IMG/VR virus record: IMGVR_UViG_2721755523_000003
Location: 9,614 to 73,613 of that record
DNA from: a virus
Lineage: Duplodnaviria; Caudoviricetes
Length of the DNA stretch: 64,000 nt
Direction: 5' to 3' (one strand)
The notes beneath the pieces were generated by a model, which made no database searches, was not told the DNA's origin, and was given only the letters and a program-made list of their open reading frames with translations. Positions within the stretch are counted from its first letter, which is position 1. The number at the start of each line of letters is the position of its first letter. Both the position numbers and the translations under genes were made by a program. This document shows, one piece after another, positions 38,622 to 64,000 of this stretch.

Positions 38622-38635
38622 TGGTGCGCGGGGGG
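38622..38635 (-). other. Probable att core: duplicated 3' end of a tRNA (likely tRNA-Leu)
   Basis: CCCCCCGCGCACCA (acceptor-stem half plus CCA) upstream of tig, where a tRNA-Leu usually sits in Betaproteobacteria (recalled); intact copy predicted beyond 64000. Confidence 0.55.
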
Positions 38636-38806
38636 CGGGTCGTCAACCATTCAAAAACAATCACTTGCCTTCACTGCGCGGGATCCGTGCGGGCCAGCAA
38701 AAGGCTTTCGAGGCCGCCCGGCACACGCCAACCCAACATGCGCGCAGCCCGACCAAAGGCCCTGCCAGTCATCGCCAATCAGCATATGAAAAAGGGTCAC
38801 ATCAAA

Positions 38807-38851
38807 TTGAAACATCTGGTCATTCGACCTATACTGTATGTGCATACAGTA
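38807..38851 (+). promoter_or_regulatory. SOS-regulated sigma70 promoter with LexA box
   Basis: TTGAAA-17-TATACT, overlapped by TACTGTATGTGCATACAGTA (CTGT-N8-ACAG). Confidence 0.88.
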
Positions 38852-38864
38852 GAAAGAAGACGCG

Positions 38865-39083
38865 ATGCAGCACCAGATTGAGACGGTCAGGGACGATGTG
38901 GAAAGCGCCAGCGAGCAAGTGGCCGCCATCTGCGAGCTGCTGGCTGCAGCCCGGGGCACGGTCGTGCACGCCTCGGCCATTACCGCATTGCTGCTGCCCG
39001 TGTCACGCAAGCTCAGCGCGGCGGCGGGTGACCTGTCCGACCATCTGCATCGCAGCCAGGTAGTTGGCAGCAAGCGCTGCTAG
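38865..39083 (+). CDS. LexA-regulated 72-aa helical protein (candidate antirepressor or toxin)
   Basis: Directly downstream of the SOS promoter, followed by a strong hairpin. Confidence 0.7.
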   Translation: MQHQIETVRDDVESASEQVAAICELLAAARGTVVHASAITALLLPVSRKLSAAAGDLSDHLHRSQVVGSKRC

Positions 39084-39100
39084 ACCCTCTCACCCCCACC

Positions 39101-39133
39101 ATGACAAGACCCCGCCCTGCGGGGTCTTGTCAT
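39101..39133. terminator. Perfect 15-bp-stem hairpin
   Basis: ATGACAAGACCCCGC-CCT-GCGGGGTCTTGTCAT. Confidence 0.75.
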
Positions 39134-39468
39134 TTCTGCATTCGGCATGGCCGCTGGCGTGCCCGCAGCGCGCACAGGCTGCAGCGATTGCCGGGCCTGC
39201 TCCCGTCGGCAAACATGGCATTCATACCCGGCCCGCGCGCCGGACCCGGCATACCGCCTGCCCGGTGCCACCGCGATCCGGTGGCCTGAGGCGTTCCCGG
39301 CATCCGCAGCCACACGCATGGCGGGTGCACCAGGAACAGGTCCGCGCGGGCCGGCCCACGAGGAGCTTCAGTGAGTCTTGCCATTCCCTTTCCCGCGCCG
39401 GATCAGGCGATACCACCACCGGCCCGTGCCGCCGCGCCCGCCAACCCTGCACACAGGGAGCGCGCCTG

Positions 39469-39672
39469 ATGCTGGCCATTGCCCGTGAATACGAAACGCT
39501 GGACGAGCTGTGCATGCGCCAGCTGGGCGCCACGCGCGGCGTGGTGGAAGCCACGCTGGAGCGCAACCCGGGCCTGCCGGCCCACGGTCCCCATCTGCCC
39601 GCCGGCCTGGCCGTCGAGCTGACCGAACCCGCCCAGGCGCCCAGCCTGCCCCTGATCAGTTTCTGGGATTGA
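39469..39672 (+). CDS. P2 gpX-like tail protein (LysM-like)
   Basis: ETLDELCMRQLG...VVEATLERNPGL...LPAGLAVEL...ISFWD. Confidence 0.85.
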   Translation: MLAIAREYETLDELCMRQLGATRGVVEATLERNPGLPAHGPHLPAGLAVELTEPAQAPSLPLISFWD

Positions 39673-39673
39673 C

Positions 39674-39940
39674 ATGGACCGAGAAACCATCGTCAAGACC
39701 GCCGCCCTGGAAGGCGCCAAGGCCGCGCCTCCCGTCACCGTCGTGGCCGCGAACGTGGCCAATGGCTGGACCATGACCCATACCGCCACCGCGCTGACCA
39801 TCGTCTACGTGCTGCTGCAGGCCGTGTATCTGCTGTGGCGCTGGCGCAATGAACGCGAGGACCGGCGCGCGCGCCAGGCCGAGGACGCCGCGCGCAGGAA
39901 GGCGTCTTCGACCTCCACAGACACCGGAGCGGCCCCATGA
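39674..39940 (+). CDS. Holin
   Basis: 88 aa, hydrophobic segment with basic C-tail, precedes endolysin. Confidence 0.7.
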   Translation: MDRETIVKTAALEGAKAAPPVTVVAANVANGWTMTHTATALTIVYVLLQAVYLLWRWRNEREDRRARQAEDAARRKASSTSTDTGAAP

Positions 39941-40518
39941 GCACAGCGCGCATGCCAGCGGCAGGACTGGGCATTGGCGCGGCCATCGTTGCTGCCTGGA
40001 TTGCCGCAGAAGGCTTCAGCGCGGCGCCCATCATTCCCGTGCAGGGCGATGTGCCCACCATCGGCCACGGCGCCACGCGCTACGAGGACGGCACACGCGT
40101 GACCCTGGCCGACCCGCCCATCACCCGCGAACGGGCGCGCGAACTGGCCATCAACCTGCTGGAGCAGCAGTACGGCGCCTGCGTGCGCGATTCGCTGGGT
40201 GACACGCGAGTGCATCCGGCCGAGTTCGCCCAGGCGGTGGACTTCGCAGGCCAGTACGGCTGCGGGGCCTGGCGCGGCTCCTCGATGCTGTCCAGGACAC
40301 GGGCTGGCGACTACGCCGGCGCCTGCCAGTCCTACCTGTCCTGGCGATTCATGACCAGCACTCAGCCTTTGCAGGGCTTCAGCGCCTATCGATGGGATGG
40401 CGCAGGCCAGCCCACGCGCTGGCGCTTTGACTGCTCGGCTCCCGGCAACAAGGTGTGCCGCGGCGTGTGGACACGCCAGCAGGCGCGCCACGCAGCCTGC
40501 ATGGAGGCCCAGCCTTGA
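39937..40518 (+). CDS. Endolysin, GH24 lysozyme with SAR-like N-terminus
   Basis: Gly/Ala-rich hydrophobic N-term, AEGF...GDVPTIGHG. Confidence 0.85.
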   Translation: MSTARMPAAGLGIGAAIVAAWIAAEGFSAAPIIPVQGDVPTIGHGATRYEDGTRVTLADPPITRERARELAINLLEQQYGACVRDSLGDTRVHPAEFAQAVDFAGQYGCGAWRGSSMLSRTRAGDYAGACQSYLSWRFMTSTQPLQGFSAYRWDGAGQPTRWRFDCSAPGNKVCRGVWTRQQARHAACMEAQP

Positions 40519-41126
40519 TGGACCGCCTGCAAACCCATGCCTGGCAGCTGCTGGCCCTGCTGCTGGCGGCACTGCTGGTCTGGCAGTCGCTGGCGCGGCT
40601 GGGTGCCGAGCGCGATGCGGCGCAGGCGCGCACGGATCTGGCGACCGACCGCCAGGCCGCTGCCACCGCCGCCCTGCACGCATCCGAACGCTATCGACAA
40701 CGGGAAAGAGCCTACCGTGAACGCCTCGACTTTCTTGCACGCGACACGGACCTGGCCCTGGCGCGCGCTGCGGCGGATGCCGATGCTGCCCGCGCTGCTG
40801 CTGGCCGGCTGCGCGGCGACCTCGCCGACTACATCACCGCCCACCGTGTCGCCGCCCAGGCTCGCGCCGCTGCCGGACAGTGCGCGCCAGACACCGGCGC
40901 CCTCGATCTGCTCGCCGAGCTGCAGCGCCGCGCTGACGAGCGAGCGGGAGCGCTGGCGCGCATTGCTGACGACGCCCGCCACCGAGGCAGCGCCTGCGAG
41001 CGCGCCTACGACGCCGGGCTCGCGCTGACGAGTGAAGCGCGCATTCCCCATGTTCCCCGGAATCCATCGGGCCCTGCAGGCGACAGGCATTTGCCGGGCC
41101 TTTCAACCAAACCATCTACCCCCTGA
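40518..41126 (+). CDS. Rz-like i-spanin (DUF2514-like)
   Basis: N-terminal TM, coiled coil, LARIADDARHRGSACERAYD. Confidence 0.75.
   Translation: MDRLQTHAWQLLALLLAALLVWQSLARLGAERDAAQARTDLATDRQAAATAALHASERYRQRERAYRERLDFLARDTDLALARAAADADAARAAAGRLRGDLADYITAHRVAAQARAAAGQCAPDTGALDLLAELQRRADERAGALARIADDARHRGSACERAYDAGLALTSEARIPHVPRNPSGPAGDRHLPGLSTKPSTP
40777..41028 (+). CDS. Embedded Rz1-like o-spanin lipoprotein
   Basis: Alternate frame inside Rz: MPMLPALLLAGC lipobox, Pro-rich; start could be upstream GTG. Confidence 0.7.
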   Translation: MPMLPALLLAGCAATSPTTSPPTVSPPRLAPLPDSARQTPAPSICSPSCSAALTSERERWRALLTTPATEAAPASAPTTPGSR

Positions 41127-41138
41127 AGGAAAACTCTC

Positions 41139-42502
<1,364 letters not shown>

Positions 42503-42506
<4 letters not shown>

Positions 42507-43036
42507 GCCTCTATCAACTGCTACCCAATGGGGCATATCGGCGGATATCAGACCAGGCCGCCATTCCTTTGGATCCGGCAAACCGGGACTACCAGGAAGT
42601 GCAGGCCTGGCTTGCAGCAGGCGGCCTTCCACTACCGCTGGAAAAGCCTACAGCCCAGGCCATGGCTGCTGCTTTGCGACAAGCCCTGGCCACCGAGTAC
42701 GCACAGCGCGTGCAGCTCATCGCTGCACCGTACGACGCGTTTGAGCGTGAGAGCTGGTATGTGCAGATCCTGGAGGCCATGGAGCTCCAGGCAACGCCAG
42801 ATGCTTCCGCGCCCTGGATCACTGCTGCAGCCGCCGCACGCGGAGTGGAACGCCTGGAACTGGCACAACGCATTCGCGCCAAGGACCAGGCCTACCGCCA
42901 GGCACACGGCCTGCTGACAGGGAACCGCCAACGCATCGAAACCGCCATCGATACGGCGGGGACGGATCTGACCAGGCTATCCGGGATCGATGTGACCGCG
43001 GGCTGGCCAGCCGCTTCAGGCCCCGCCCCCCACTGA
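42503..43036 (+). CDS. Tail fibre assembly chaperone-like protein
   Basis: IPLDPANRDYQEVQAWLAAG motif; coupled to the upstream fibre gene. Confidence 0.6.
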
Positions 43037-43177
43037 CGGTACCAGCCACGGCGGCAAAGCGAATGGCCTCCCCGGCCAGCAGCCGCGCCGCCGTGGTCGA
43101 GCGCCCGGCTCGCCCACGGGCATCGCGACAAAACGCTCCGATGCCGCCTACCCCAACCTTGATGGAGAGCTCTTGCC

Positions 43178-43687
43178 ATGCTCAAGCCCGCTAGCCTGCG
43201 CGACGCGCTCGTCGCTGCCCTGCCCCAGCTGCAACAGTCGCCAGGGAACATCCGTTTCACCATCCAGAGGGGCCGCGTGATCAACACGGGCACGCCGTCC
43301 CTTTCCTGGGAATACCGCTACACGCTGAACCTGGTGATTGCGGACTTCACCGGCAGCATCGATGCCGTGACCGTGCCGCTGCTGGTCTGGGCGCGGCGCC
43401 ACCAGCCCGACCTGTTCGACCATGCCGAAAGGCGCGAGCAGGCGATCCGCTTCGACATTGCGCCTCCTTCCACGGACCCTGCAGCCGCCTCGCAGCCGCA
43501 GCAGCTCGCGATCGAGATCGACCTGGTGGAGGCCGTGCTGGCGCGCCCGCGCGAGGGCAGCCCCGGCGCCTTCGACCTGATCTACAAGCCCGAGCCGCCG
43601 GGCCAGCTCGACATTGCACAGCGCCAGTTGTGGGAGCTGTTCCTGTTCGACGAGAAGGTGGCCGAGTGGAACTACGACCCGCGCTGA
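43178..43687 (+). CDS. P2 gpR-like tail completion protein
   Basis: MLKPASLRDAL, FTIQRG, SWEYRYTLNLVIADF, VPLLVWARRHQPDL. Confidence 0.88.
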   Translation: MLKPASLRDALVAALPQLQQSPGNIRFTIQRGRVINTGTPSLSWEYRYTLNLVIADFTGSIDAVTVPLLVWARRHQPDLFDHAERREQAIRFDIAPPSTDPAAASQPQQLAIEIDLVEAVLARPREGSPGAFDLIYKPEPPGQLDIAQRQLWELFLFDEKVAEWNYDPR

Positions 43688-43756: not shown

Positions 43757-43786
43757 CGGCGACACGCAAGGGCCCGGCCGGCACCA

Positions 43787-44391
43787 TGAACGCCATGGAT
43801 TCGCCCGTCGCACAAACCGAGAGCCCGTACGAGATCATCCGCCGCCTGGAGGGGCTGATCCGCACGGGCACCATCGCCGCAGTCCGCCATGCGCGCCCTG
43901 CGCGCTGCCGCGTCAAGACCGGCAACCTGACCACCAACTGGATTCCCTGGCTGGCCCTGCGCGCCGCAGGCGAGAACGCCAGCGTCTGGTGGCCACCGGC
44001 CGTGGGCGAGCAGTGCGTGCTGCTGTCGCCCGGCGGCGACCTGCTGGGCGCCGTGGCGCTGACCGGCATCTACAGCAGCGCCGCAGCCCAGCCCAGCGAC
44101 CGCGAAGGGGTATGCCACACGCAGTGGAGCCCCACTGATTTCATGGAGCACGACAGCACCACGGGCCGTCTCAACATCAACGTGGCCCATGGCATCACGC
44201 TGCGGGTGGGCAACTCGGTGATCAGCATCGACGAGCAAGGCATCAGCCTGCAGGCCGGCGGCGGTTCGGCCACCGTCAATGCGCAAGGCCTGGCCGGCGC
44301 GCCCGATGTGACCACCGGCCCCATCAGCCTGCTGCGCCACCGCCACGGTGGCGTCAGGGCGGGCGACGCCATCACGCAGGGACCGCTATGA
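43787..44391 (+). CDS. Baseplate spike, P2 gpV
   Basis: RLEGLIRTGTI, TNWIPWLALRAA, WWPPAVGEQCVLLSPGG, C-terminal HRH. Confidence 0.88.
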
Positions 44392-44738
44392 ACCGCCATA
44401 CAGGCCTCCGCATCGAGGGCATGGAGCATCTGCGCCAGAGCGTGGCCGACATCCTGTCCACGCCCATCGGCTCGCGCGTGATGCGCCGCGACTATGGGTC
44501 GCTGGTCCCGGCGCTGCTGGACCAGCCCGACAACAACGCCACCCAGGCACGCCTGCGCGCCGCCGTGGCCAGCGCGCTGATGCGCTGGGAGCCCCGCATC
44601 CGCCTGACACGCATCGTGATCGAGCGCGATCCGGCCATACCCGGGCGCGCCGACCTGACGCTGATCGGCACCTTCAACAACACGCGCCGCCCGGCACCGC
44701 TGAGCCTGCAGATGCCCATTGCCCGCACCCTTTCATGA
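44388..44738 (+). CDS. Baseplate gpW/gp25
   Basis: HLRQSVADILSTPIGSRVMRRDYGS, ALMRWEPRI. Confidence 0.92.
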   Translation: MNRHTGLRIEGMEHLRQSVADILSTPIGSRVMRRDYGSLVPALLDQPDNNATQARLRAAVASALMRWEPRIRLTRIVIERDPAIPGRADLTLIGTFNNTRRPAPLSLQMPIARTLS

Positions 44739-45592
44739 AGCAAGACATGACCCCTGCACTGGACGCCCTGCCGCCGCCCGGCGTCGTCGAGACGCTGGAT
44801 TTCGAGCGCATCCTCGACGCCCACCGCGCCGATCTGCTGGCGCGCCACCCGGAGGCCGCCGAGGTCCTGGCGCTGGAGAGCGAGCCGCTCAACAAGCTGC
44901 TGGAGGCGCACGCCTATCGCGAGCTGCTGTACCGGGCGCGCGTCAACGATGCCGCGCGTGCGCACCTGATTGCGTTCGCCCAGGGCTCGGACCTGGATCA
45001 CAAGGGCGCCTTCTATGACGTGGCCCGACTGCCCGGCGAAAGCGACGAACGCTACCGCCAGCGCATCCTGCTGCGCGTGCGCGCGCTGGCCGGCAGCGGC
45101 ACGGCCGAGCACTACGAGCACCTGGCCATGACGGCCAGCCCCAATGTGCACAGCGCCATCGCCACCCAGCCCCAGCCCGGCCGCGTGAGCGTGCAGCTGT
45201 GGCTGGTCGAGCCCGCCCTGGCCGAAGAGACGCTGGCCATCGTGCTGTCGGCCCTCAATGCGCCAGGCGCGCGGCCGCTGGGCGTACCCGTGTCGGTATC
45301 GCTGGCGCGCCCGCACCCCATCGACATCACGGCGCACCTGCTGCGCGAGCCCGGTGCGCCCGTGGACATCGTGGCGCGCCTGCAGGCCGGCCTGGCCGCC
45401 CAGATCGCGGCCTACGCGCTGCTGGGCCGCGATGTGCCGCGCTCGTGGATCACCACGCGCCTGCATGTGGACGGCATTGCCCGCGTCACCTACCCCGACG
45501 CCCAGGCCCCGGCCGAGCTCACGCCGCTGGCCGCCGACGAATACCCGGTGCTGGGCCGCGTCCAGCTGGTGGACGAGGGCCTGCAGGCATGA
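44735..45592 (+). CDS. Baseplate J protein
   Basis: VETLDFE, ESEPLNKLLE, RVNDAARA, FAQGSDLD. Confidence 0.88.
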   Translation: MKQDMTPALDALPPPGVVETLDFERILDAHRADLLARHPEAAEVLALESEPLNKLLEAHAYRELLYRARVNDAARAHLIAFAQGSDLDHKGAFYDVARLPGESDERYRQRILLRVRALAGSGTAEHYEHLAMTASPNVHSAIATQPQPGRVSVQLWLVEPALAEETLAIVLSALNAPGARPLGVPVSVSLARPHPIDITAHLLREPGAPVDIVARLQAGLAAQIAAYALLGRDVPRSWITTRLHVDGIARVTYPDAQAPAELTPLAADEYPVLGRVQLVDEGLQA

Positions 45593-46569
45593 GCACCGCC
45601 GCCATCGCCCCGACGGCGCCCCGCCGCCATGTGCTGCCGCCCAACGCCACGGCGCTGGAGAAGGCCGTGGACCAGGTCGTCCCGAATTGGGATGGCCTGG
45701 CCGGCGCCTTTCCCGCGCCAGCCCATGGCGAGCCTGCGGCCTTTCTGCCCTGGCTGGCGGCCGAATGGGGCATTGCCCAGTTCGACCGCTACTTCGACGA
45801 TGTGCCCGCCCTCATCGCCAACGGCCTGCCCTGGCTGCGCGAGCGCGGCACGGCCGCGTCCATGCAGCGTGCGCTGGGCTGGCTGGGCTATGACGGCGCG
45901 CAGCTCGACGAGGATGGTGCCTGGCTGCACCTGGACCTGGGACGCATCATCGGCGACGCAGAGCTGGCCAGCGTGGCCCATGTGGTGCGCGCCAGCCTGC
46001 CGGCGCACGTGCGCTTTTACCGCGTCTTCCACGGCCACGACCTGCGCCCGCTGCGGCTGGACCACGGCCCGGGCCTGGACGCCGGCATGCTGGACAACGA
46101 CAGCGGCACCTGGATCGATGTGTCGCCGTATGGCGAACCCGTCAAGCTCAGCCAGGGCCTGCCCCGCCGCACCGGCACCGAGGCACCGCCTTCGGACGGC
46201 GTGCTCACGGCCCAGCTGTTCCGCGTCACCACCATCGCCACCTATGCCGACCGCATGCTGCTCGATGCCTGGACGCTGGACAGCGAGATCCTGATCGACG
46301 CCAGCCTGGGCATCACCGAAGTCAACGCCACCACCACGGGCGAGCCCGCCTACTACGCGCCGCTGCGGCCCATTCCCGCGCAGGCCATGGCCACCCACAG
46401 CGCCTGGACGGCGCCCGCTCCGCTGGCCCTGGCCAGCCTGCACCCCTGGGCCAGCACCGAGCGCCCGCACGACAACACCCGTACCTGGACCGGACGCTGG
46501 GACAGCACGCCCTGGCGCCGATCCTTCGAAACCCGCACCACCACCACCGAAGAACCCGAGGAACCCTGA
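45589..46569 (+). CDS. Tail protein I-like baseplate wedge
   Basis: LPPNATALEKA, FLPWLAAEWG, RGTAASMQRALGWLG. Confidence 0.8.
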   Translation: MSTAAIAPTAPRRHVLPPNATALEKAVDQVVPNWDGLAGAFPAPAHGEPAAFLPWLAAEWGIAQFDRYFDDVPALIANGLPWLRERGTAASMQRALGWLGYDGAQLDEDGAWLHLDLGRIIGDAELASVAHVVRASLPAHVRFYRVFHGHDLRPLRLDHGPGLDAGMLDNDSGTWIDVSPYGEPVKLSQGLPRRTGTEAPPSDGVLTAQLFRVTTIATYADRMLLDAWTLDSEILIDASLGITEVNATTTGEPAYYAPLRPIPAQAMATHSAWTAPAPLALASLHPWASTERPHDNTRTWTGRWDSTPWRRSFETRTTTTEEPEEP

Positions 46570-46571
46570 AC

Positions 46572-47057
46572 ATGGCAGTTCTGCAGCAAGCGGGCCGCAT
46601 CGCCCTCGCCAAGGCCGTCGCCGCCCAGACCATCCACATCGCCTGGGGCCGCGGCCTGCCCGCCTGGGACGCCGCGCCCGAGCCCGAACCCATCACCGCC
46701 AACGCCCTGGTCGACGAAATCGGCCGCCGCCTGGTCACCGAGGTGCGCTTTGCGCGGCCCGACGACAACGGCGAGATCGAGCTGCCCAGCGGCGCGCGCT
46801 ACAGCGTCAGCGACACACCCACCACCTTCGTCTACCTGCGCGCGGCCTTCGGCTTCGACGATGCCAAGGGCGAGGACGTGCGCGAGATGGGCGTGTTCTT
46901 CGGCACCCAGGTCGCCACCGACGTGCCGCCCGGCCAGCGCTGGGTGCTGGCCAGCCAGCTGACCGGCAAGGGCGAGCTGTACACGCTGGAGCGCCGCCCC
47001 CGGATCCTGCGCAGCGGCAGCGTGCGCCAGGTCGAAGAAATCATCCTCCCCTTCTGA
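46572..47057 (+). CDS. Baseplate/fibre attachment protein
   Basis: 161 aa, IAWGRG...LVDEIGRR...VREMGVF; coupled in operon. Confidence 0.65.
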   Translation: MAVLQQAGRIALAKAVAAQTIHIAWGRGLPAWDAAPEPEPITANALVDEIGRRLVTEVRFARPDDNGEIELPSGARYSVSDTPTTFVYLRAAFGFDDAKGEDVREMGVFFGTQVATDVPPGQRWVLASQLTGKGELYTLERRPRILRSGSVRQVEEIILPF

Positions 47058-47067
47058 ACGGCACCCC

Positions 47068-51849: not shown

Positions 51850-51862
51850 CATCTCCACCTGC

Positions 51863-51898
51863 AAAAGCCCCGGCACCTATTGGGCGGCCGGGGCTTTT
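51863..51898 (+). terminator. Terminator-like hairpin
   Basis: AAAAGCCCCGG...CCGGGGCTTTT. Confidence 0.7.
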
Positions 51899-52153
51899 CC
51901 GTTTCTGATCTGCACCCCGAACCGGTGCAAAAGCAAGCCTCTGTGCAGCCCTCCCGCACAGCCAAGGTCGCTGGCGCCCATGCCCCTGCCGCGAGAACAT
52001 CAATGCAACCCGGGCGCAACGCCAGCGGCCTTGCAGGCTGCAGGCGCCAACCCGGCCAGGACAACCAGGCCGCCTTGGCTGCATGAACTTCAGCATGAAA
52101 CAAACCATCACTGTCGATCCCGCCAACGCCGCAGCTTGCGCAAAGGTGCCTGC

Positions 52154-54366: not shown

Positions 54367-54876
54367 ATGGGACTGCCCCGCTCTCTCAAGAATTTCGCCA
54401 CCTTCGTGGATGGCAACTCGTACATCGGCGACATGCCCGAAGTGGGCTTGCCCAAGCTCACCCGCAAGATGGAGAAGTACCGCGCCGGCGGCATGAACGG
54501 CGAGGTCAGCCTGGACTTCGGCATGGAGGCCATCGAGGCCGACCTGACCGCTGCCGGCTACATGAAGGAGTTGATCTCCACCTGGGGCACGCTGCGCCAC
54601 GACGGCGTGCTGCTGCGCTTCGCCGGCGCCCTGCAGGGCGATGACAGCGAAGGCGTGGACTCGCTGGAAGTGGTCATGCGTGGCCGCTTCTCGGAGTTCG
54701 ACCCCGGCAAGGCCAAGGCCGGCGACAAGACCGAGATCAAGTACAAGCTGGCCGTCAGCTACTACCGCCTGTCCATCAACGGCCAGGTGCTGATCGAGAT
54801 CGACCCGGTCAACTTCGTCGAAGTCGTCAACGGCATCGACCGCCTGGCCCAGGTCCGCGCCGCGCTGGGCATCTGA
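54367..54876 (+). CDS. Tail tube, P2 FII
   Basis: MGLPRSLKNFATF, LPKLTRK, YRAGGMNG, EIDPVNFVE. Confidence 0.95.
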   Translation: MGLPRSLKNFATFVDGNSYIGDMPEVGLPKLTRKMEKYRAGGMNGEVSLDFGMEAIEADLTAAGYMKELISTWGTLRHDGVLLRFAGALQGDDSEGVDSLEVVMRGRFSEFDPGKAKAGDKTEIKYKLAVSYYRLSINGQVLIEIDPVNFVEVVNGIDRLAQVRAALGI

Positions 54877-54944: not shown

Positions 54945-55304
54945 ATGGACACCACCAAGCCCCAGGAAGACCTCCAGAACCAGGCTGCCGCCAACGCGGC
55001 CGCCCTCGCATCGGGCGATGCGCGCGAGATCACGCTCGACGTGCCGCTCAAGCGCCCCGGCGGCGACCTGGCCCGGGTGCTGGTGCGCCGCCCCAATGCC
55101 GGCGCGCTGCGCGGCCTGTCGCTGGTCGAGCTGCTGCACATGAACGTGACCGCGCTGCAGACCCTGCTGCCGCGCGTGACCGAGCCCATGCTGCACAAGG
55201 CCGAGGTGCTGCAGCTGGACCCCGCCGACCTGGTGACCCTGGGTACGGAGGTGGCCTCTTTTTTGGTGCCGAAGGCGCAGAGGGAGCAATTCCCGAGCGC
55301 GTAG
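54945..55304 (+). CDS. Tail assembly chaperone E
   Basis: ITLDVPLKR...RRPNAGALRGLSL. Confidence 0.88.
   Translation: MDTTKPQEDLQNQAAANAAALASGDAREITLDVPLKRPGGDLARVLVRRPNAGALRGLSLVELLHMNVTALQTLLPRVTEPMLHKAEVLQLDPADLVTLGTEVASFLVPKAQREQFPSA
55259..55265 (+). other. -1 programmed frameshift site for E+E'
   Basis: TTTTTTG as in P2; the -1 frame reads through into the E' ORF. Confidence 0.8.
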
Positions 55305-55543: not shown

Positions 55544-58393
55544 ATGGCCGTTGACACCCTGCGCCTGGACGAGGTGCTCAAGCAGGCCGAGCGCGTGCAC
55601 CAGCCCCTGGCGCTGCTGGGAAGAACCAGCAGCAACACGGCCCGGGAACTCAAGGAAACGGTCGACCAGTTGAAGAAGCTGCAGCAGCAGCAAACCCAGC
55701 TGGGCGACTACCGCGCGCTGCGCAGCGGCCTGGCCGACACCACGGCGCGGCTGCGCGGAGCGCGCCAGCAGATGGCCCAGCTGCGGCTGGAATCGGGCGC
55801 GGGCGAGCAGCCCTCGCGCGCCATGCTGCGCGCGCTGCGTTCGGCCCAGGTCGAGGAAGAGCGCCTGGCGCTGCTGCGCGCCACGCAGCGATCGCGCCTG
55901 ATGGACATGCGCGAAGGCCTGCGCGGCGCGGGCGTGGACACGGGCAACCTGTCGGCGCACGAGCGCAAGCTGCACAACGACATCCGCGCCACCACGGCCC
56001 AGATGGAAAAGCAGCGCAAGGTGGTGGCACCGGCCGCCCAGCGGCTGGAGAGGATCGACGCCCTGCGCGAGCAGAGCAAGACCCTGGCCGATCGCGGCCA
56101 GGCGCTGCGCGAGACGGGCGGCAAGATGCTGGCGCCCGTGCGCGCCGTGAGCCAGGCCTTCATGACCGACGACCAGGCCGCCGCGCAGCTGCGCGCCACC
56201 ATGGCGGGCAGCAACGGCAAGCCGGGCGCCGAATACCAGCAGGTGCTGGACTTGGCCAAGAGCCTGGGCACCGACATGCCCGGCAGCACGGCCGACTACA
56301 TCGCGATGATGAACCAGCTGCAGCGCCAGGGCGTGTCCTCGCAGGATGTGCTGGGCGGCGTGGCCCGGCAGGCGGCCAACCTGGGCGCCGTGCTGCAGAT
56401 GCCGACCAAGGAGGCTGCCACGCTCGCGGCGCAGCTGCAGCAGGCCACTCGGGCCGGCGCAGGCGACATGGCCGCATTGGCCGATACGGTGCAGCGCGCC
56501 GCCCACCTGAACCTGGACCCCGACGAAATGGTCAAGGGTCTGGATGCCATCGGCAAGGCCCTGCCGCAGCTGGGACAGCAGGGCGCAAGGTCGGGACAGA
56601 TGTTTGCGCCGCTGCTGCTCATGCTCAACGATGCCAGCATCAGCGGCAAGGCTGCCGGCACCGCCGTGGGCAACCTGGTCAAGAACTCCATGGACCCGGC
56701 CAGACTGGGCCAGGTCAACAAGATGCTCGCGGGCCAGGGCGTGTCGCTGGACTTCAAGGACGCCAGCGGCCAGTTCGGCGGCACCGAGCAGATGATGGCC
56801 CAGCTGCAAAAGCTGCAGAGCCTGGGCAGCGACAAGCTGCGCGCCGCTGCGCTGGACAAGCTGGCGGGCGGCGATGCGCAGACGCGCAAGGCCCTGGAGG
56901 CGTTGCTCCAGCAGGGCCCGGGCGGCTACCAGCAGATCGCCTCCCAGCTCAAGTCACAGGCGGATATGGATGGGCGCGTGGCCATCCTGAAGGACTCGGT
57001 CTCGGCCCAATACGAGTCCGTCAAGGACAGCTACAACGGCCTGTTGAGCGACATGGGCTCGACCATCGAGTCCGACCTCAAGGCCGTGCTGGGCACGCTG
57101 CGCGAGATGACCGAAGGCATGCGCGCCTGGGTCAAGGAGCATCCCCAGATCGTGCAGTGGACGCTGCGCATCGTGGCCGTGCTGGGCCTGCTGGTCGCAG
57201 GCGTCGGCGTGGTGAGCAGCGTGCTGTTCGGCCTGCTGGCGCCGCTGCTGCTCACGCGCACCGTGTTCGGCCTGCTGGGCGCGGCCATGGGCGCAGGCAG
57301 CGGCGCCTTGGGCGTGCTCAGGCGCGGCCTGGCGGCCGTGGTCCTGTCGCTGGGCATGATGGGCGGCGGCGGCAGTGCCATGGTCCTGCTGTCGGGCGGC
57401 ATGCGCATGGCCAGCAGCGCCGTGGGCGTGCTCCGGCGCGGCGTGGGCGCCGTGGTCCTGTCCCTGGGCATGATGGGCGGCGGTGGCGGAGCCATGGGCC
57501 TGCTGTCGGGCGGCATGCGCATGGCCAGCAACGCTGCGGGCGTGCTCAGGCGCGGGCTGGGCGCCGTGGTCCTGTCGCTGGCCATGATGGGCCGCGGCGC
57601 TGCCATGGGCAGCATAGGCACCGCCCTGGCCGGCGCGGGCCGCGCTGCAGGCCGCATCTTCGGCGGCGGGGCAGGCGCAGCCAAAGGCGTGGCCGGCAAG
57701 GGCCGTGCGGGCGCCGTCATGGGCCTGCTGGGCGCCGGCCTGGGTGCCGCAGGTGCCGTCGGCGGTGGTCTGGGCGGTAGTCTGGGTGGTGCAGCCGCAT
57801 CGCTGATGGGCCTGGTGCGCATGACACCCATGGGCCGGCTCGCAGGCGGCCTGATGGGCGCGGGCGGCTCGATCATGCAGAACTGGGATGGCCTGTCCAC
57901 CGCCGTCAAGGCCGGCGACTGGAAGGGCGTCGGCGGCACGCTGCTGGACGCCGGCAAGGCCGGCCTCGATGGCGCCACGGGCGGCCTGTTCGGCGTGGTC
58001 TCTGACCTGGCCGGCAAGGGCATCAGCGGCCTGGCCTCGTCGGTGGGCTCATGGTTCAAATCCGGCGATGCGTCAGCACCCGACCAGGGCCGCGCCGGCG
58101 CACTGCGCCAGGGTGTTGCGGCCGCAGCCACGGCGGCCACGCTGGCCACGGGCGCCATGCCGGCCATGGCCGACACGGGCGCCGTGCGCATCGACAGCCG
58201 CCCGCCGCTGGCCAGCGCCGCTGCACCCGCGTCGGCACCGGCCCCGGTGGCCGGCGCCACCATCCACATCACCGTCAACGCTGCGCCCGGCCAGGACGCG
58301 CAGGCCATTGCCCGCGCCGTGGCCGCCGAGCTGGACCGCCGCGACATGGCCAAGCGCTCCAGCGTGCTGTCGCAGCTGTCGGACATCGACTGA
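55544..58393 (+). CDS. Tail tape measure protein (P2 T-like)
   Basis: 949 aa helical, TP901-type core, TM-rich C-half. Confidence 0.9.
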   Translation: MAVDTLRLDEVLKQAERVHQPLALLGRTSSNTARELKETVDQLKKLQQQQTQLGDYRALRSGLADTTARLRGARQQMAQLRLESGAGEQPSRAMLRALRSAQVEEERLALLRATQRSRLMDMREGLRGAGVDTGNLSAHERKLHNDIRATTAQMEKQRKVVAPAAQRLERIDALREQSKTLADRGQALRETGGKMLAPVRAVSQAFMTDDQAAAQLRATMAGSNGKPGAEYQQVLDLAKSLGTDMPGSTADYIAMMNQLQRQGVSSQDVLGGVARQAANLGAVLQMPTKEAATLAAQLQQATRAGAGDMAALADTVQRAAHLNLDPDEMVKGLDAIGKALPQLGQQGARSGQMFAPLLLMLNDASISGKAAGTAVGNLVKNSMDPARLGQVNKMLAGQGVSLDFKDASGQFGGTEQMMAQLQKLQSLGSDKLRAAALDKLAGGDAQTRKALEALLQQGPGGYQQIASQLKSQADMDGRVAILKDSVSAQYESVKDSYNGLLSDMGSTIESDLKAVLGTLREMTEGMRAWVKEHPQIVQWTLRIVAVLGLLVAGVGVVSSVLFGLLAPLLLTRTVFGLLGAAMGAGSGALGVLRRGLAAVVLSLGMMGGGGSAMVLLSGGMRMASSAVGVLRRGVGAVVLSLGMMGGGGGAMGLLSGGMRMASNAAGVLRRGLGAVVLSLAMMGRGAAMGSIGTALAGAGRAAGRIFGGGAGAAKGVAGKGRAGAVMGLLGAGLGAAGAVGGGLGGSLGGAAASLMGLVRMTPMGRLAGGLMGAGGSIMQNWDGLSTAVKAGDWKGVGGTLLDAGKAGLDGATGGLFGVVSDLAGKGISGLASSVGSWFKSGDASAPDQGRAGALRQGVAAAATAATLATGAMPAMADTGAVRIDSRPPLASAAAPASAPAPVAGATIHITVNAAPGQDAQAIARAVAAELDRRDMAKRSSVLSQLSDID
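57311..57595. repeat. 114-bp (38-aa) tandem repeat, ~2.5 units, within tape measure
   Basis: GVLRRG...VVLSLGMMGGGG...LLSGGMRMAS units starting at 57311, 57425, 57539. Confidence 0.88.
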
Positions 58394-58398: not shown

Positions 58399-58845
58399 AT
58401 GAGCATGCTGATCACACTGGGCCAGTTTTCCTTCGGCATCGACACACTGGCATTCGACAAGCTGGTGCGCAGCAGCACCTGGCGCCACCCGAGCAACAGC
58501 CGCGTGGGCGCGCGCCCCGCCCGCCAGTCGCTGGGCCCCGGCGATGAAACGCTGGGCCTGACCGGCGTGCTCGCACCCGAGTTCCGGGGCACGGCCAAGT
58601 CGCTGGACGACCTGCGCGAAATGGCCGACCAGGGCAAGGCATGGGCCCTGGTGGGCGGCGAAAGCATCCTGGGCGCCTGGGTCATCGAGAGCCTGCAGCA
58701 GACCGGCACGCACTACACACCGGGCGGCAAGCCGCGCCGCATCGAGTTCGATCTCAAGCTGGCCCGCGTGGACGACCACCTGGCCGAAGGCAGCGGCGGC
58801 GTCGATCCCTGGCCCGATGAAGACTTCTGGGAATGGTGGATCTGA
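58399..58845 (+). CDS. Tail protein U
   Basis: LGQFSF, WRHPSNSRVGARP, QSLGPGDE, GVLAPE. Confidence 0.9.
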   Translation: MSMLITLGQFSFGIDTLAFDKLVRSSTWRHPSNSRVGARPARQSLGPGDETLGLTGVLAPEFRGTAKSLDDLREMADQGKAWALVGGESILGAWVIESLQQTGTHYTPGGKPRRIEFDLKLARVDDHLAEGSGGVDPWPDEDFWEWWI

Positions 58846-59846
58846 TGGCCACGCAGGAATACTTGCACGCCAAGCCCCAGTACGAAATCGTCCTGGACGG
58901 GCGCGACATCACCAGCAGCGTGAACACGCGGCTGATGAACCTGACGCTGTCCGAATCGCGCGGCGAAGAGGCCGACAAGCTGGACATCACGCTGGACGAC
59001 AGCGATGGGCGCCTGCCCATGCCGGGCAAGGGATCCAAGATCGCGCTGAAGCTGGGCTGGGCCGGACATGGCCTGGTCGACAAGGGCACCTACGAGGTGG
59101 ACGAGGTGGAGCACCAGGGCGCGCCCGACAGGATCGTGGTGCATGCGCGCTCGGCCGAACTCAAGCGCCAGCTGCGCACGCGCTCCGAGCACAGCTACCA
59201 CAACAGCACGCTGGGCCAGATCGTGCGCAGCATCGCCCAGCGCAACGGCCTGCAGGTGCGCGTGGACGCGCAGTTCGAGAACCTGCGCGTGGACCACATC
59301 GACCAGACCCACGAAAGCGATCTGAACTTCTGCAGCCGCCTGGCGCGGCAGTATGACGCCGTGTGCACGGTCAAGAAGGGCAAGCTGGCCTTCATCGCCA
59401 TCGACAGCAAGATCACCGCTGCCGGCCAGGCCGTGGAGGCCGCCACGCTCACGCGCGCCGTGGGCGACAGCCACAACTACCACACGGCCGCACGCAACGA
59501 CTACAGCGGCGTGCGCGCGTACTGGAACGACGCGGATCGTGCCGAGAAACGCAGCGCCACGCAGGGCGCCGAGGACAACGAAAAGCGCCTGAAGGACACC
59601 TACGGCAGCGAGGCCGAGGCGCAGGCCGCCGCCAAGGCCGAGATGGGCCGCATCAACCGCGCCAAGGCCACCATGGGCCTGAAGCTGGCGCTGGCGCGGC
59701 CCGACCTGATGCCGCAGACGCCGCTGAAGCTGCAGGGGTTCAAGGCGGAGATCGATGACACGCCATGGCTGGTCGTCAAGATCCAGCACGAGCTGGGCGA
59801 CGGCGGCTTCACCTCCAAGCTGACGCTGGAGACGCGCGCCAAGTGA
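58845..59846 (+). CDS. Late control/baseplate hub protein D
   Basis: EADKLDITLDD, LGWAGHGLVDKG, DQTHESDL, HELGDGGFTS. Confidence 0.92.
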   Translation: MATQEYLHAKPQYEIVLDGRDITSSVNTRLMNLTLSESRGEEADKLDITLDDSDGRLPMPGKGSKIALKLGWAGHGLVDKGTYEVDEVEHQGAPDRIVVHARSAELKRQLRTRSEHSYHNSTLGQIVRSIAQRNGLQVRVDAQFENLRVDHIDQTHESDLNFCSRLARQYDAVCTVKKGKLAFIAIDSKITAAGQAVEAATLTRAVGDSHNYHTAARNDYSGVRAYWNDADRAEKRSATQGAEDNEKRLKDTYGSEAEAQAAAKAEMGRINRAKATMGLKLALARPDLMPQTPLKLQGFKAEIDDTPWLVVKIQHELGDGGFTSKLTLETRAK

Positions 59847-60231: not shown

Positions 60232-60260
60232 TTGACATGCTCGAAATTTCGAGCAATGAT
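60232..60260 (+). promoter_or_regulatory. Early promoter with 18-bp palindromic operator in the spacer
   Basis: TTGACA-17-AATGAT; TGCTCGAAATTTCGAGCA at 60238-60255; partial copy TCGAAATTTC at 60209. Confidence 0.78.
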
Positions 60261-60305: not shown

Positions 60306-60536
60306 ATGACAGCCATGCACTCCCCCAGAGCCGTGCCCGGTATCCCTGCGGATCCGGTGCTTCATGACAGGCCCGTGCCGCTGCGCATGACGGCATCCGA
60401 ACGCGAACGCCACGCCCGCTATGCCAGCCGTGAAAGCCGCAGCGCCTCCAACTTCGCGCTGAAGCTGTACCGCATGGGCATGCAGCAGTACGAGCAGCAG
60501 ATGCCGCCGCTGCCCCAGGCCGATCAGGCGCGATAG
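60306..60536 (+). CDS. Cox-position small DNA-binding protein (ribbon-helix-helix-like)
   Basis: VPLRMTASERERHARYASRESRSASNFALKLY; divergent from repressor. Confidence 0.65.
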   Translation: MTAMHSPRAVPGIPADPVLHDRPVPLRMTASERERHARYASRESRSASNFALKLYRMGMQQYEQQMPPLPQADQAR

Positions 60537-60597
60537 CCACCCGCGCCGACCTGTTCACCGCCTTGTCTTCGATCCCAACTGCCCCCAGGAGCCTGCC

Positions 60598-60921
60598 ATG
60601 CGCATGATGTGCCCCCACTGCAACGAACACGCCTACACCCGCACCAGCCTGCAGCTGACCAGCACCAGCCGCGAGACCATCTTCCAGTGCCGCAACTTCG
60701 AGTGCGGCCATGTGTTCTCGGCGGTCACCGAGATCAACCGCACCATCAGCCCCAGCGCCATCCCCAACCCCATGGTGATCCTGCCGATGAGCACGCACAT
60801 CAAGCGCAAGCTGCTGCAGACCCAGCTGGACGCCATGCCGTCCTCGCAATACGAAGGCGCAGCGCACCGCGCAGCCCAGGCGGCCGAATCCGCCCAATCC
60901 AGCGAAGGCGTGCGCAGCTAG
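60598..60921 (+). CDS. ogr: Ogr/Delta-like zinc-finger late activator
   Basis: CPHC...YTRTS...FQCRNFECGHVF...ISPSAIPNP. Confidence 0.9.
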   Translation: MRMMCPHCNEHAYTRTSLQLTSTSRETIFQCRNFECGHVFSAVTEINRTISPSAIPNPMVILPMSTHIKRKLLQTQLDAMPSSQYEGAAHRAAQAAESAQSSEGVRS

Positions 60922-61029
60922 CGCGGCCGGGGCGCCTTCGCCGCTCCTGACGGCGCCCCACCCGGCGCGCGGGCAGCCCGCCTGCACCGCCGCCACCCCA
61001 CCCCCTTTCCCGCAATCTGCGGAGCCTGC

Positions 61030-61482
61030 ATGAAGGCCCTGCGGGATGCGCTCACCCTGAAACGACCTGGACAGACCATGAAGCTCGGCGACCTGCGCCT
61101 TTCCGATCTGATGCGACTGCTGCGGGCAGACGATGCGCCCGCGCCCGAATACCGGCCCGAGGACCCGCCCGCGCTGCCCGAGGCCTACCAGCGCCTGAGC
61201 GTCCAGGACTGCCGCATCCGCCTGCGCGAGCTGCAGCGCGAGGCCGCGCAGCGCTGCGCCAACGGCCGCTGCGGCAGCGCCGAAAGCCGCGAATGGGCGG
61301 GCCTGGCCAGCCACTACCGCATGGCCCTGGTGCTGCTGGCGGGCATAGACGGCGAGATCGAGGAGCTGGCCCTGCGCGACTGGCGCGAAATGCCGCCGCC
61401 CGAGCGCGACGCCATCCGCCGCCAGATCCGAGCGCTGCGCACCTGCCTGCTGCCGCTGCGCGCGCTGGCCCTGAGGACCTGA
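61030..61482 (+). CDS. Hypothetical early protein (P2 B-position)
   Basis: 150 aa upstream of A; start may be 61072. Confidence 0.6.
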   Translation: MKALRDALTLKRPGQTMKLGDLRLSDLMRLLRADDAPAPEYRPEDPPALPEAYQRLSVQDCRIRLRELQREAAQRCANGRCGSAESREWAGLASHYRMALVLLAGIDGEIEELALRDWREMPPPERDAIRRQIRALRTCLLPLRALALRT

Positions 61483-61486
61483 GCCC

Positions 61487-63481
61487 ATGTCCGTCCTGCT
61501 CGCCGCCAAATCCACCGGCCGCAGGCTGCGCACCGCCAGCCTGCAGCAATGGGACCAGCACAAGCCCCGCCCCCACATGGTCCAGCGCGCCATGCAGGCG
61601 CTGGAAAAAGCCTTGCCGCCGCAGTGGCTGCAGCCCATGAAGCTGCTGGGCCTGGGCGACTGGCAAAAGGGCGCGCAACACGCCAACGGCCAGCCCGAAT
61701 GGGCGGCCTGCCACGACGCGCTGGCCGCCATTGACGACTTTGCCAGCCGCCACGGCCGTGCGGCCGAGTGGAATCTGGACGACTACGAGATCTGCCAGAT
61801 GGCCAGGCGCCTGAGCGACGAAGTCGGTGAGCTCGACGCCGGCGCCCAGGCCCAGAACATGGACCTGGCCGCACGCGTGGACCTGGTGCGGCTGATGCTG
61901 CGCATGCTGGGCCTGCAGGAAAGCACGCCGCTGGCCGGCGAGCCCGCCATTCGCCGCGCGCTGGACGCGGCCTGGTGGCGCCGCATGCTGCGCCGCCACG
62001 TCACGCGCACCGTGGAGGCCGGCGCCGTCAAGCTGGGCATCGTCAACCGCCGCACCGGCGGCTATGCCAGCAATGCCACCGTGCGCCGGCGCACCGCGCA
62101 GATCGAACGCAACGCCCGCGCGCTGGAGCGCAGCCTCTACCGAAACGAGGCCGGCCAGGTCTTCACCCTGGCCGAGCTGGCCGCGCTGTCGCCGGCCAAC
62201 CCCGTGATCCGTGGCGGCGAGCTGATGACGCGCATCCGCGGCGCAGAGGAATATGCCGACGCGCGCAGCCACGTCGGCCTCTTTCTCACGCTGACGGCGC
62301 CCAGCCGCTTTCACGCCGTCACGCTGGGCAGCGGCGGCCGGCCGCGCCCCAATCCACATTACGACGGCCACAGCACGCCGCGCGATGCCCAGCTGTGGCT
62401 GCGCACCATGTGGGCGCGCGTGCGATCGCACCTGGGCCGCCAGCGCATCGCCATGTACGGCATCCGCGTGGCCGAGCCGCACCATGACGCCACGCCGCAC
62501 TGGCACGCCCTGGTCTGGGCCGAGTGCGAGGAGCACGCCCAGCACATCGAGGCCGCCATCCGCAAATGGTGGCTCAGCGAAGATGGCGACGAGCGCGGCG
62601 CCCAGCGCAACCGCATCAACGTCAAGCGCATGACCGGCGGCGGCGCTGCCGGCTACGTGGCCAAGTACATCGCCAAGAGCGTGGGCCATGCGGCCCTGGC
62701 CGACCACCTCGACGTGGTGCAGGGCCGCCTGTGGGATGTGGAGCAGGGCGGCATGCCCGGCCACCGCCGCGTGGACGCCTGGGCCGCCTGCTGGGGCATT
62801 CGCCAGTTCCAGGCCGTGGGCATGCCCAGCGTCTGCGTCTGGCGCGAACTGCGCCGTGTCAGCAAGGACCAGGTCGAACAGATCCGCATCGAAGGCGACA
62901 AGGCCAGCTGGAAGGCCTGGGGCGCCAGCCACCGCCACGGGCCCGACATCCCCGCCGACTGGCGCCGCTACATGGAAGCCATGGGCGGCCACTGCCTGGC
63001 CCGCGACCGCTGGCACCTGCGCATGGCACGCCGCCCCGTGCCCGCCGGCGCCGTCAACCAATACGGCGAGGCCATCGCGCCCGGCTGCGGCCGCGTGGTG
63101 GGCCTGGAAACCCGGCGCGGCCAGTGGCTGGTCTCGCGCCGCATCGCCTGGCGCAGCGTGGCCCGCGCCACGCTGGAGTTCCAGGAAACCCAAGGTGCGG
63201 AAAGCGCCAAGGGTGCCGAGGTCGCCGAGGTCGCCGACGTGGCCCCGCCGACCCTGCTCGCCCGCGCGCCGCTGGCGCGCGCTTGGACTGGTTTCAATAA
63301 CTGTACGGCCCGGCTCACGGGCCACACGCTGCGCGCCCTCATCGGCCGCAGCGGGCACCTGCGCGAGGACCGGGGCAACCCGGCCGGGCCCGATTCGGGT
63401 GCCGATTCCGCGCCCGATTCCGTGCTGCACCGCCCCGCATCCGGCGCCACGCCATCCAACCACCCTTTCTTTACCAGCTGA
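61487..63481 (+). CDS. Replication initiator, P2 gpA-type HUH endonuclease
   Basis: FLTLTAPSRFH, EPHHDATPHWH, AAGYVAKYIAK, WGIRQFQ, WRELRR. Confidence 0.92.
   Translation: MSVLLAAKSTGRRLRTASLQQWDQHKPRPHMVQRAMQALEKALPPQWLQPMKLLGLGDWQKGAQHANGQPEWAACHDALAAIDDFASRHGRAAEWNLDDYEICQMARRLSDEVGELDAGAQAQNMDLAARVDLVRLMLRMLGLQESTPLAGEPAIRRALDAAWWRRMLRRHVTRTVEAGAVKLGIVNRRTGGYASNATVRRRTAQIERNARALERSLYRNEAGQVFTLAELAALSPANPVIRGGELMTRIRGAEEYADARSHVGLFLTLTAPSRFHAVTLGSGGRPRPNPHYDGHSTPRDAQLWLRTMWARVRSHLGRQRIAMYGIRVAEPHHDATPHWHALVWAECEEHAQHIEAAIRKWWLSEDGDERGAQRNRINVKRMTGGGAAGYVAKYIAKSVGHAALADHLDVVQGRLWDVEQGGMPGHRRVDAWAACWGIRQFQAVGMPSVCVWRELRRVSKDQVEQIRIEGDKASWKAWGASHRHGPDIPADWRRYMEAMGGHCLARDRWHLRMARRPVPAGAVNQYGEAIAPGCGRVVGLETRRGQWLVSRRIAWRSVARATLEFQETQGAESAKGAEVAEVADVAPPTLLARAPLARAWTGFNNCTARLTGHTLRALIGRSGHLREDRGNPAGPDSGADSAPDSVLHRPASGATPSNHPFFTS
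63277..63304 (+). other. P2-type rolling-circle ori inside gene A
   Basis: GCGCGCTTGGACTGGTTTCAATAACTGT resembles the P2 ori (...TCAATAACTGT, recalled). Confidence 0.6.
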
Positions 63482-63502
63482 TCCACCCCAGGAGGACCCA
63501 CC

Positions 63503-63751
63503 ATGCACCACAACATCACCGCCCTGCGCAGCTACCGCGCCACCCTCATCCCCCACGGCGTGGACGCCGCGCAGCTGGATCAACTGGCCGACGCCCGCCT
63601 GCTGCCCGTGCTGCGCCTGAAGGCGGCCAGCGCCAGCCACGCCCAGGCCTGCGCCCTGCTGGCCAGCGGCCGGCCCGTTCTGCGAGTCGAGCGAGTTGAA
63701 CGTGCGGAGCGCAAGAAGGCAGGCAAGTCCATCACGCCGCGCCAGGCCTGA
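63503..63751 (+). CDS. Hypothetical protein
   Basis: 82 aa, GGAGG RBS. Confidence 0.6.
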   Translation: MHHNITALRSYRATLIPHGVDAAQLDQLADARLLPVLRLKAASASHAQACALLASGRPVLRVERVERAERKKAGKSITPRQA

Positions 63752-63793
63752 TCAAGCACCCCAGCACCGGACACGACATCGGAGAACACCGCA

Positions 63794-64000
63794 ATGACGC
63801 AACAGAACATGGAACTCTTTCACAGCGCCCCGCGCCTGGACACCCAGGGCATCGCCAACTACCTGGGCCTGAGCCGCGAGCACGTCACCGCGCGCCTGAC
63901 CAAGCGCCCGGACTTTCCCAAGCCCTTCATCAACGCCAGCCGCCGCATCCGCTACTGGCGCATGGCTGACGTCAAGGCCTGGGCCGAGGGGCGCCGGTGA
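63794..64000 (+). CDS. AlpA/excisionase-like HTH protein
   Basis: LDTQGIANYLGLSREHV...RPDFPKP...RYWRMADVKAW. Confidence 0.8.
   Translation: MTQQNMELFHSAPRLDTQGIANYLGLSREHVTARLTKRPDFPKPFINASRRIRYWRMADVKAWAEGRR

Follow-up and report, generated by a model that had tools for sequence, protein, structure and literature searches.

Do some tailocins, the head-less phage tails with which bacteria kill their relatives, require excision and genome amplification for their production? This question is raised by a prophage of the P2 family in a 64,000-nucleotide stretch of DNA with a GC content of about 67% (hereafter the window), which comprises bases 9614-73613 of the 73.6-kb IMG/VR provirus record IMGVR_UViG_2721755523_000003, so that the window and the record end together at position 64000. 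The prophage, which belongs to Delftia, has lost the head genes Q, P, O, N, M and L together with S and has kept the rest. We think it reasonably probable that it is an R-type tailocin which is inducible by the DNA-damage (SOS) response, excises from the chromosome and probably replicates, and the element most likely makes bacteria-killing phage tails. A preliminary description of this DNA, made from its letters, had offered two roles, an amplifying tailocin or a tail-donor satellite that borrows heads. The former fits the completeness of the element, the selection on its integrase gene int and its replicase gene gpA, and the excised attP form described below, while the latter found no support.

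Absence of the head genes and of S

The proteins of the Acidovorax phage Alfacinha3, the best annotated relative, were compared with the whole 73.6-kb contig by tblastn. Its Q, P, O, N, M, L and S proteins gave no matches, while nearly all of its tail, lysis and early proteins matched the contig in the same comparison. In the closest full-length relative, Q-P-O-N-M-L lies ahead of X, and S lies between R and V. In the window, the interval between the att-like site at 38622 and X at 39469 contains only one small open reading frame (ORF), which encodes 72 amino acids, and 385 bp with no convincing ORF, close to the 380 bp of non-coding DNA first estimated. When the region 38636-39468 was compared with 50,697 phage records by distant blastn, no match was found. 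The S family PF05069 is absent from the record and scores in a full-length positive control (G065, an IMG/VR provirus), and only about 98 bp separate the stop codon of R (43687) from the V start chosen by the gene callers of other copies. The complete elements of relatives likewise lack the head module, and both absences claimed in the preliminary description are therefore upheld.

Two genomes that carry the element were used for comparison, namely Delftia acidovorans MMO-42 (isolate draft, 6.6 Mb) and G040 (complete, 6.1 Mb). Each of them contains a single P2-type sheath, and the P2-type capsid family PF05125, which is present in 5/5 of the closest full-length relatives, is absent from both. 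Since the closest full-length relative carries Q-P-O-N-M-L and S at the corresponding places, the loss was surgical, removing the heads and the docking gene only.

Borders of the element and its excised form

The element is integrated at the 3' end of tRNA-Leu(TAG), beside tig. Its left border is a direct repeat, attL, whose second copy, attR, is located 25.8 kb away in MMO-42 and 26.6 kb away in G040, adjoining an intact tRNA-Leu(TAG) in both. The final 14 nt of the repeat (38622-38635) copy the 3' end of this tRNA and the remainder corresponds to the terminator region downstream of it; an Rfam scan of the att region returned nothing credible. From their order and size, we take the four ORFs to the left of the element to be lon, clpX, clpP and tig, of which only the label of tig is confirmed, by trigger-factor Pfam matches of the flanking gene in relatives. 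Since element-free genomes have tRNA-Leu about 200 bp from tig, the insertion was precise, and the tig-side junction of MMO-42 matches that of the window at 97% identity.

At the right edge of the window, the provirus is cut directly after the AlpA-like gene, and the missing end is known from relatives, in which the early operon continues with hipA, hipB, the tyrosine integrase gene int and attR, followed by the intact tRNA-Leu(TAG). The hipA/hipB pair (Pfam matches HipA_C, Couple_hipA and HTH_3), which separates the AlpA-like gene from int in all complete copies (12261-13975 in locus L002), encodes a toxin-antitoxin system that probably stabilises the element. The preliminary description had proposed to inspect the sequence beyond 64000 for int, the intact tRNA and displaced head genes, the last of which would have overturned it. 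In the relatives, int and the intact tRNA are found there and head genes are not, indicating that the element is complete and bounded at 26-28 kb and that the window ends at a provirus cut. Although the position of this cut might suggest that the heads are missing through misassembly or truncation of the record, such an artefact is hardly credible and is refuted by independent assemblies, since the same junction and full borders recur in the isolate draft and the complete genome as well as in a circular contig and several contigs from metagenomes. Among the features of a functional P2-like temperate phage, Ogr, the gpA replicase, a tyrosine integrase and an att site at a tRNA are all present, and the head and packaging module Q-P-O-N-M-L is absent. 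Provirus pipelines score the complete element as an incomplete phage, with CheckV values of 48-64% for head-less IMG/VR records.

The nearest genome matches of the window are MMO-42 and a contig of a soil metagenome-assembled genome (MAG), with gpA 95% identical. This MAG contig of 27,167 bp has an exact terminal overlap of 157 bp and contains no host DNA, which corresponds to a circle of 27,010 bp in the attP form, with the order gpA, int, att sequence, 72-aa gene and X. In total, the attP form was found in five public assemblies (contigs of 27,167, 27,030, 27,151, 1,950 and 152,912 bp, one of them checked to be circular), a count that omits further similar places in which integrated and excised copies are lumped. 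A search for the attP-only pattern added one IMG/VR record and two further contigs from metagenomes, and look-ups by protein identity gave the contigs of 27,030 and 27,151 bp, the latter known from its gene table alone, alongside integrated copies beside tig. Thus, an excised attP form of the element exists. In the 152,912-bp metagenome contig, the attP-type junction (int, att, 72-aa gene, X) is located mid-contig (L105, Ga0209238_1000017:73961-88211), which might reflect a tandem array or a permuted copy, or else chimeric assembly of the contig.

Other DNA was also observed at this tRNA. A locus with an identical att sequence (L066, G010:C51:55000-70000, ~8500-13000) has an integrase 99% identical to that of the element, hipBA and an ogr-like gene (81%), together with another repressor and no tail genes within about 6 kb, and is a different element that shares the same integration module. 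In a Comamonas MAG (L063 and L064, G007:C57), two att-like copies (3392-3454 and 19998-20062) lie 16.6 kb apart beside tig, and the DNA between them has no match to the Delftia head-less element. The tRNA-Leu site has the look of a hot spot for integration.

Age of the head-less lineage and selection on its genes

In G040, the element occupies the same site and is built in the same way; its junction DNA is 81% identical and its proteins are 49-99% identical to those of the window, the sheath FI being the 99% case. Between the window and G040, the flanking host ORFs (read as tig, clpP and clpX) show a synonymous divergence (dS) of 0.24-0.27, and the dS of most element genes is of the same order. 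The ratios of nonsynonymous to synonymous divergence (dN/dS) were 0.03 for FI, 0.07 for FII, 0.07 for int, 0.14 for the DUF4815 gene, 0.17 for ogr, 0.31 for gpA and 0.37 for the repressor gene, with values for the genes of tail, lysis, regulation, replication and integration spanning 0.03-0.4. Truncated structural genes were found in 0/19 copies from genomes, IMG/VR and other assemblies. In the gpA tree, the ten head-less copies group in a single clade (support 100/100) nested within the full-length phages, and its sister group consists of full-length proviruses of 34-38 kb, all with the P2 capsid gene. These comparisons indicate that the head-less form is an old and maintained lineage and that int and gpA are under purifying selection across host-scale divergence.

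The same observations bear on whether the element is a functionless cryptic remnant that has not yet decayed and whose excision reflects leftover integrase activity. The loss of heads makes the element non-infectious, defective prophages are common, and an insertion in the window copy clips Rz. However, the head-less state is as old as the host divergence (dS of about 0.25) with structural genes open in 19 copies, the dN/dS values are low across all these gene classes, the loss is confined to the heads and S, and the fibre cassettes diversify. We therefore regard a remnant as unlikely.

The divergence from G040 is also mosaic. BW3TFN, FI, FII, E and the repressor gene have dS values of 0.07-0.13, below the 0.25 of the host flanks, and the lysis genes and T have values of 0.4-0.64, with T only 49% identical. 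This mosaic suggests recombination with other copies and phages.

Regulation and replication

The only LexA box in the window is a perfect one and lies over the -10 hexamer of the promoter of the 72-aa gene (Table 1). This box is kept in G040 despite diverged flanks, and it is also found in a full-length relative in which the homologous small gene adjoins the portal gene. The 72-aa protein has no Pfam or PHROG match, only six homologue clusters of it were found, and its gene has a dN/dS of 0.25 versus G040. The immunity repressor consists of a helix-turn-helix (HTH) domain without a peptidase domain, so that it is unable to self-cleave; among its 218 short homologues, those with a named source are from Comamonas. 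It probably binds the perfect palindrome in the early promoter, for which a half-site (CGAAATTTC) is found near 60211, and the repressor with operator in the preliminary description agrees with both the Pfam matches and this palindrome. Because the sole LexA box lies over the -10 of the 72-aa gene and the repressor is HTH-only, the most economical reading is that the 72-aa protein would act as an SOS-controlled antirepressor.

Upstream of X, a dyad TTGCC-N15-GGCAA (39188-39212), whose arms but not spacer are kept in G040, may be a protein-binding site. As a repeated late-promoter motif it was rejected, with a single exact copy in the window.

When gpA was aligned with P2 gpA, the HUH motif (PHWHALVW) was found to be kept, as were both tyrosines (GYVAKYIAKS), which are equivalent to P2 Y450/Y454. 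We suggest the following pathway. Upon DNA damage, the promoter of the 72-aa gene would be freed of the LexA bound at its box, and the product of this gene would inactivate the HTH-only repressor. The early operon would then be expressed, supplying the Arc-like protein, Ogr, gpA and the AlpA-like excision helper. Int would excise the element, giving a circular molecule of about 27 kb, gpA may copy this circle by rolling-circle replication, and Ogr would turn on the tail and lysis genes. Finally, holin, endolysin and spanins would lyse the cell, releasing head-less contractile tails which would kill related bacteria, with the target range set by swappable fibre cassettes. For P2, replication is reported to be needed for transcription of the late genes. 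The element would keep the P2 developmental programme whole, and excision with rolling-circle copying may provide more template for the late genes. This locus points to a probable tailocin in Delftia, and its fibre cassettes could serve strain-specific killing.

Here, we need to consider several points that weigh against a tailocin of this kind. Particles, killing and induction in Delftia are predicted here from genes, our literature search found no report of a Delftia tailocin, and the 72-aa protein is a putative antirepressor. The sequence TGT-N12-ACA, given in the preliminary description as the site of Ogr, occurs 7 times in the window versus 7.2 expected by chance, with none at the late-promoter position, and was rejected as an Ogr site; Ogr itself is matched by Pfam. 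The HUH and tyrosine motifs of gpA stand as first described, and the ori claimed with them does not, since the P2 ori nick sequence was searched for and not found. The retention of int, gpA and hipBA equally suits a horizontally spreading element. The attP DNA is identical in 4/4 contigs with sequence compared, so that a single widespread strain, perhaps a contaminant of reagents, may be the source of these contigs, and the attP junction within the 152,912-bp contig is not explained by a simple circle. In addition, a 2.1-kb insertion between Rz and R (41033-43174) replaces about the last 16 codons of Rz in the window copy, and could provide a second target range or impair the spanin.

Comparison with known systems

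The proven tailocin BceTMilo, from Burkholderia cenocepacia, is RecA-dependent and is specified by a P2/KL3-like defective prophage of 23 kb, which retains an integrase and xis along with Ogr, a repressor and a CHC2 primase-type protein of 930 aa (PMC5411513). In both BceTMilo and the Delftia element, the head module is cut exactly at X/L and S is lost, and a full P2-type tail, a fibre with its chaperone and a lysis cassette are present. Both also keep a tyrosine integrase, an excision helper, Ogr, a repressor and a replication-type gene. Both loci are kept across strains, in BceTMilo with only silent or missense changes, and both are linked to DNA damage, through RecA dependence in BceTMilo and the LexA box in the Delftia element. 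As cited in the BceTMilo report, S of P2 serves as the adaptor by which the finished tail docks to the filled capsid and is dispensable in a tailocin (PMC5411513, citing Linderoth 1994). The two elements differ in the replication gene (CHC2 primase type of 930 aa in BceTMilo, HUH gpA in Delftia), in control (a 163-aa c1-Cro-type repressor versus the 111-aa HTH-only repressor with the SOS-boxed 72-aa gene), and in host family and lysis genes, and hipBA is found in the Delftia element. Moreover, BceTMilo was proven by microscopy and killing assays, whereas the Delftia element is known from its genes. The text of the BceTMilo paper does not mention replication (PMC5411513). We suggest that the Delftia element is best filed with the BceTMilo kind, to which it adds evidence for an excised circle, for divergence in step with the host and for selection acting on int and gpA. 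In this head-less P2 derivative, the integrase and the replicase have been kept by selection throughout the divergence of its hosts, and the derivative has been caught in the excised state.

R-type pyocin loci of Pseudomonas aeruginosa are fixed chromosomal clusters under PrtN/PrtR control, without an integrase, att repeats or a phage replicase. They resemble the Delftia element in having a P2-related contractile tail with a lysis cassette, no heads and SOS-linked induction (review PMC12090994). Tailocins are usually portrayed as immobile chromosomal loci that lack genes for replication or mobility. The same review defines tailocins as being without replication genes (PMC12090994), while the Delftia element has an intact gpA. 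BceTMilo departs from this definition as well, indicating that it is not universal, and the premise of the preliminary description that R-type tailocins usually lack integration and replication genes was too broad, given the int, xis, primase-type gene, ogr and repressor of BceTMilo.

Full-length P2-like phages of Comamonadaceae (Peduoviridae; Alfacinha3 and the G065 provirus) have the same gene order from X to int, as well as an SOS-boxed small gene, there beside the portal gene. They differ in having Q, P, O, N, M, L and S and a length of 34-40 kb. Their gpA is 58-77% identical to that of the element, their int at most 89% and their sheath 63-68%.

Known satellites have absent or borrowed tails, and they carry packaging signals and helper-sensing control. 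Like P4-like satellites and those phage-inducible chromosomal islands (PICIs) that form capsids, the Delftia element is integrative, excising and probably self-replicating and misses part of the virion set. In contrast to them, it keeps the tails and has lost the heads, it has no recognisable cos, and its control looks SOS-driven. As a mirror image of capsid-forming PICIs, it might excise, replicate and be packaged in capsids of a co-infecting P2-like phage while providing its own tails and fibres. This would explain the retention of int, gpA and hipBA and the circles of about 27 kb in metagenomes. The int, AlpA-like, gpA and repressor genes are indeed kept under purifying selection, attP-form contigs of about 27 kb occur in metagenomes, this length is about 70-80% of the 34-38 kb of full-length relatives, and int (89%), holin (86%) and endolysin (80%) are shared with full-length phages. 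The low dS of FI, FII, E and the repressor gene (0.07-0.13), younger than the host flanks (0.25), also hints at exchange between copies. However, the element has lost S, by which the completed tail of P2 is joined to its filled head, a P2-type capsid gene, and with it a matching resident helper, is lacking from both MMO-42 and G040, induction is apparently wired to SOS rather than to a helper, and the overall divergence follows the host. No similarity to the cos of P2 or RSA1 was found above shuffled controls, a test without power because the conserved cos core is also missing from the full-length relatives. Taken together, the loss of S and the lack of a P2-type capsid in two carrier genomes leave a helper-dependent tail donor unsupported and improbable, somewhat more so than a mere remnant. 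That it represents a new kind of satellite, which would bring tails and fibres itself and take capsids from an incoming P2-like phage, is a shade less probable still, and the literature search found no tail-only satellite. A supply of heads from the adjacent lambda-like prophage was rejected, as its terminase gave no match in MMO-42 or G040 in a search run without a positive control.

Tail, fibre and lysis genes

The contractile tail and baseplate set is complete (X, R, V, W, J, I, fibres, FI, FII, E/E', T, U and D), with Pfam matches and open frames, and the element has its own lysis cassette of holin, endolysin, Rz and Rz1, in which the C-terminus of Rz is altered in the window copy. The block from X to the lysis genes (39469-41126) was assigned by PF05489, PF00959 and PF10721 and by phrog_920, phrog_312 and phrog_11621, and the fibre module (46572-53052) matches phrog_863 and phrog_25252. 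The tail, baseplate and lysis genes thus prove intact as first described, with Pfam and PHROG matches throughout, and the same is true of the E/E' frameshift, whose -1 frame matches a Pfam family of its own (Table 1).

The cassette past p179 varies among copies. The extra fibre pair carried by the insertion is exclusive to the window copy, being absent from the MAG circle, MMO-42 and G040. Within the tape-measure gene, internal repeats of about 115 bp were observed at 57269-57609, and the length of T differs among close copies (910-949 aa as called), suggesting that tail length may differ.

Table 1. Features of the head-less element and its surroundings in the window (a dot marks features without strand).
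Feature	Position	Strand	Remarks
Tape measure, lambda-like prophage	285-4217	-	
Capsid E, lambda-like prophage	6471-7412	-	
S49 protease, lambda-like prophage	7858-9213	-	
Portal, lambda-like prophage	9526-11127	-	
Lambda-type terminase	13312-15405	-	
VapE/primase pair, lambda-like prophage	16403-19118	-	
ParB-like gene, lambda-like prophage	24461-26398	-	
Four ORFs (817, 420, 202, 459 aa)	32334-38362	-	beside tRNA cluster
attL, 75-bp direct repeat	38561-38635	.	second copy (attR) in MMO-42 and G040
Promoter TTGAAA-17-TATACT	38807-38851	+	LexA (SOS) box TACTGTATGTGCATACAGTA at 38832-38851 over -10; read from sequence
72-aa protein gene	38865-39083	+	SOS-boxed; no known family
Hairpin terminator	39103-39131		3' of 72-aa gene
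Spacer at the relatives' Q-P-O-N-M-L position	39134-39468	.	no convincing ORF
33-codon ORF coupled to X	39371-39469		inside spacer
Tail protein X	39469-39672	+	PF05489
Holin	39674-39940	+	
Endolysin	39937-40518	+	
Rz i-spanin	40518-41126	+	
Rz1 lipoprotein	40777-41028	+	embedded in Rz; lipobox LLAGC
Extra tail-fibre gene, 455 aa	41139-42506	+	lower GC; phrog_4757, phrog_4492 (tail fibre, pair)
Partner of extra fibre gene, 177 aa	42503-43036	+	
Tail completion R	43178-43687	+	PF06891
Spike V	43666 or 43786 to 44391	+	PF04717
W	44388-44738	+	PF04965
J	44735-45592	+	PF04865
I	45589-46569	+	PF09684
BW3TFN fibre gene	46572-47057	+	PF25691
DUF4815 protein, 1038 aa	47068-50184	+	PF16075
p179	50181-50720	+	fibre module
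Variable tip and chaperone region	50717-53052	+	
Sheath FI	53110-54303	+	PF04984
Tube FII	54367-54876	+	PF04985
E	54945-55304	+	PF10109
E' via -1 frameshift	slippery TTTTTTG at 55259, extension to 55423	+	PF06528, 1.5e-20
Tape measure T	55544-58393	+	PF10145
U	58405-58845	+	PF06995
D	58833-59846	+	PF05954
Immunity repressor, 111 aa	59896-60231	-	PF13560, PF01381, PF07022; HTH only, without peptidase domain
Operator, perfect 16-bp palindrome GCTCGAAATTTCGAGC	60241-60256	.	directly past TTGACA -35 of early promoter
Early operon	60306-64000	+	phrog_3431, PF04606, PF05840
Arc-like p76	60306-60536	+	
Ogr	60598-60921	+	
p150	61030-61482	+	
gpA replicase	61487-63481	+	
p82	63503-63751	+	
AlpA-like HTH, 68 aa	63794-64000	+	HTH_17 and excisionase PHROGs

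Other features of the window

The lambda-like prophage is a separate siphovirus prophage on the minus strand, which occupies 285-26398 of the window and the 9.6 kb preceding it. Between this prophage and the tRNA cluster, at 26000-31000, the GC content falls sharply to 42-45%.

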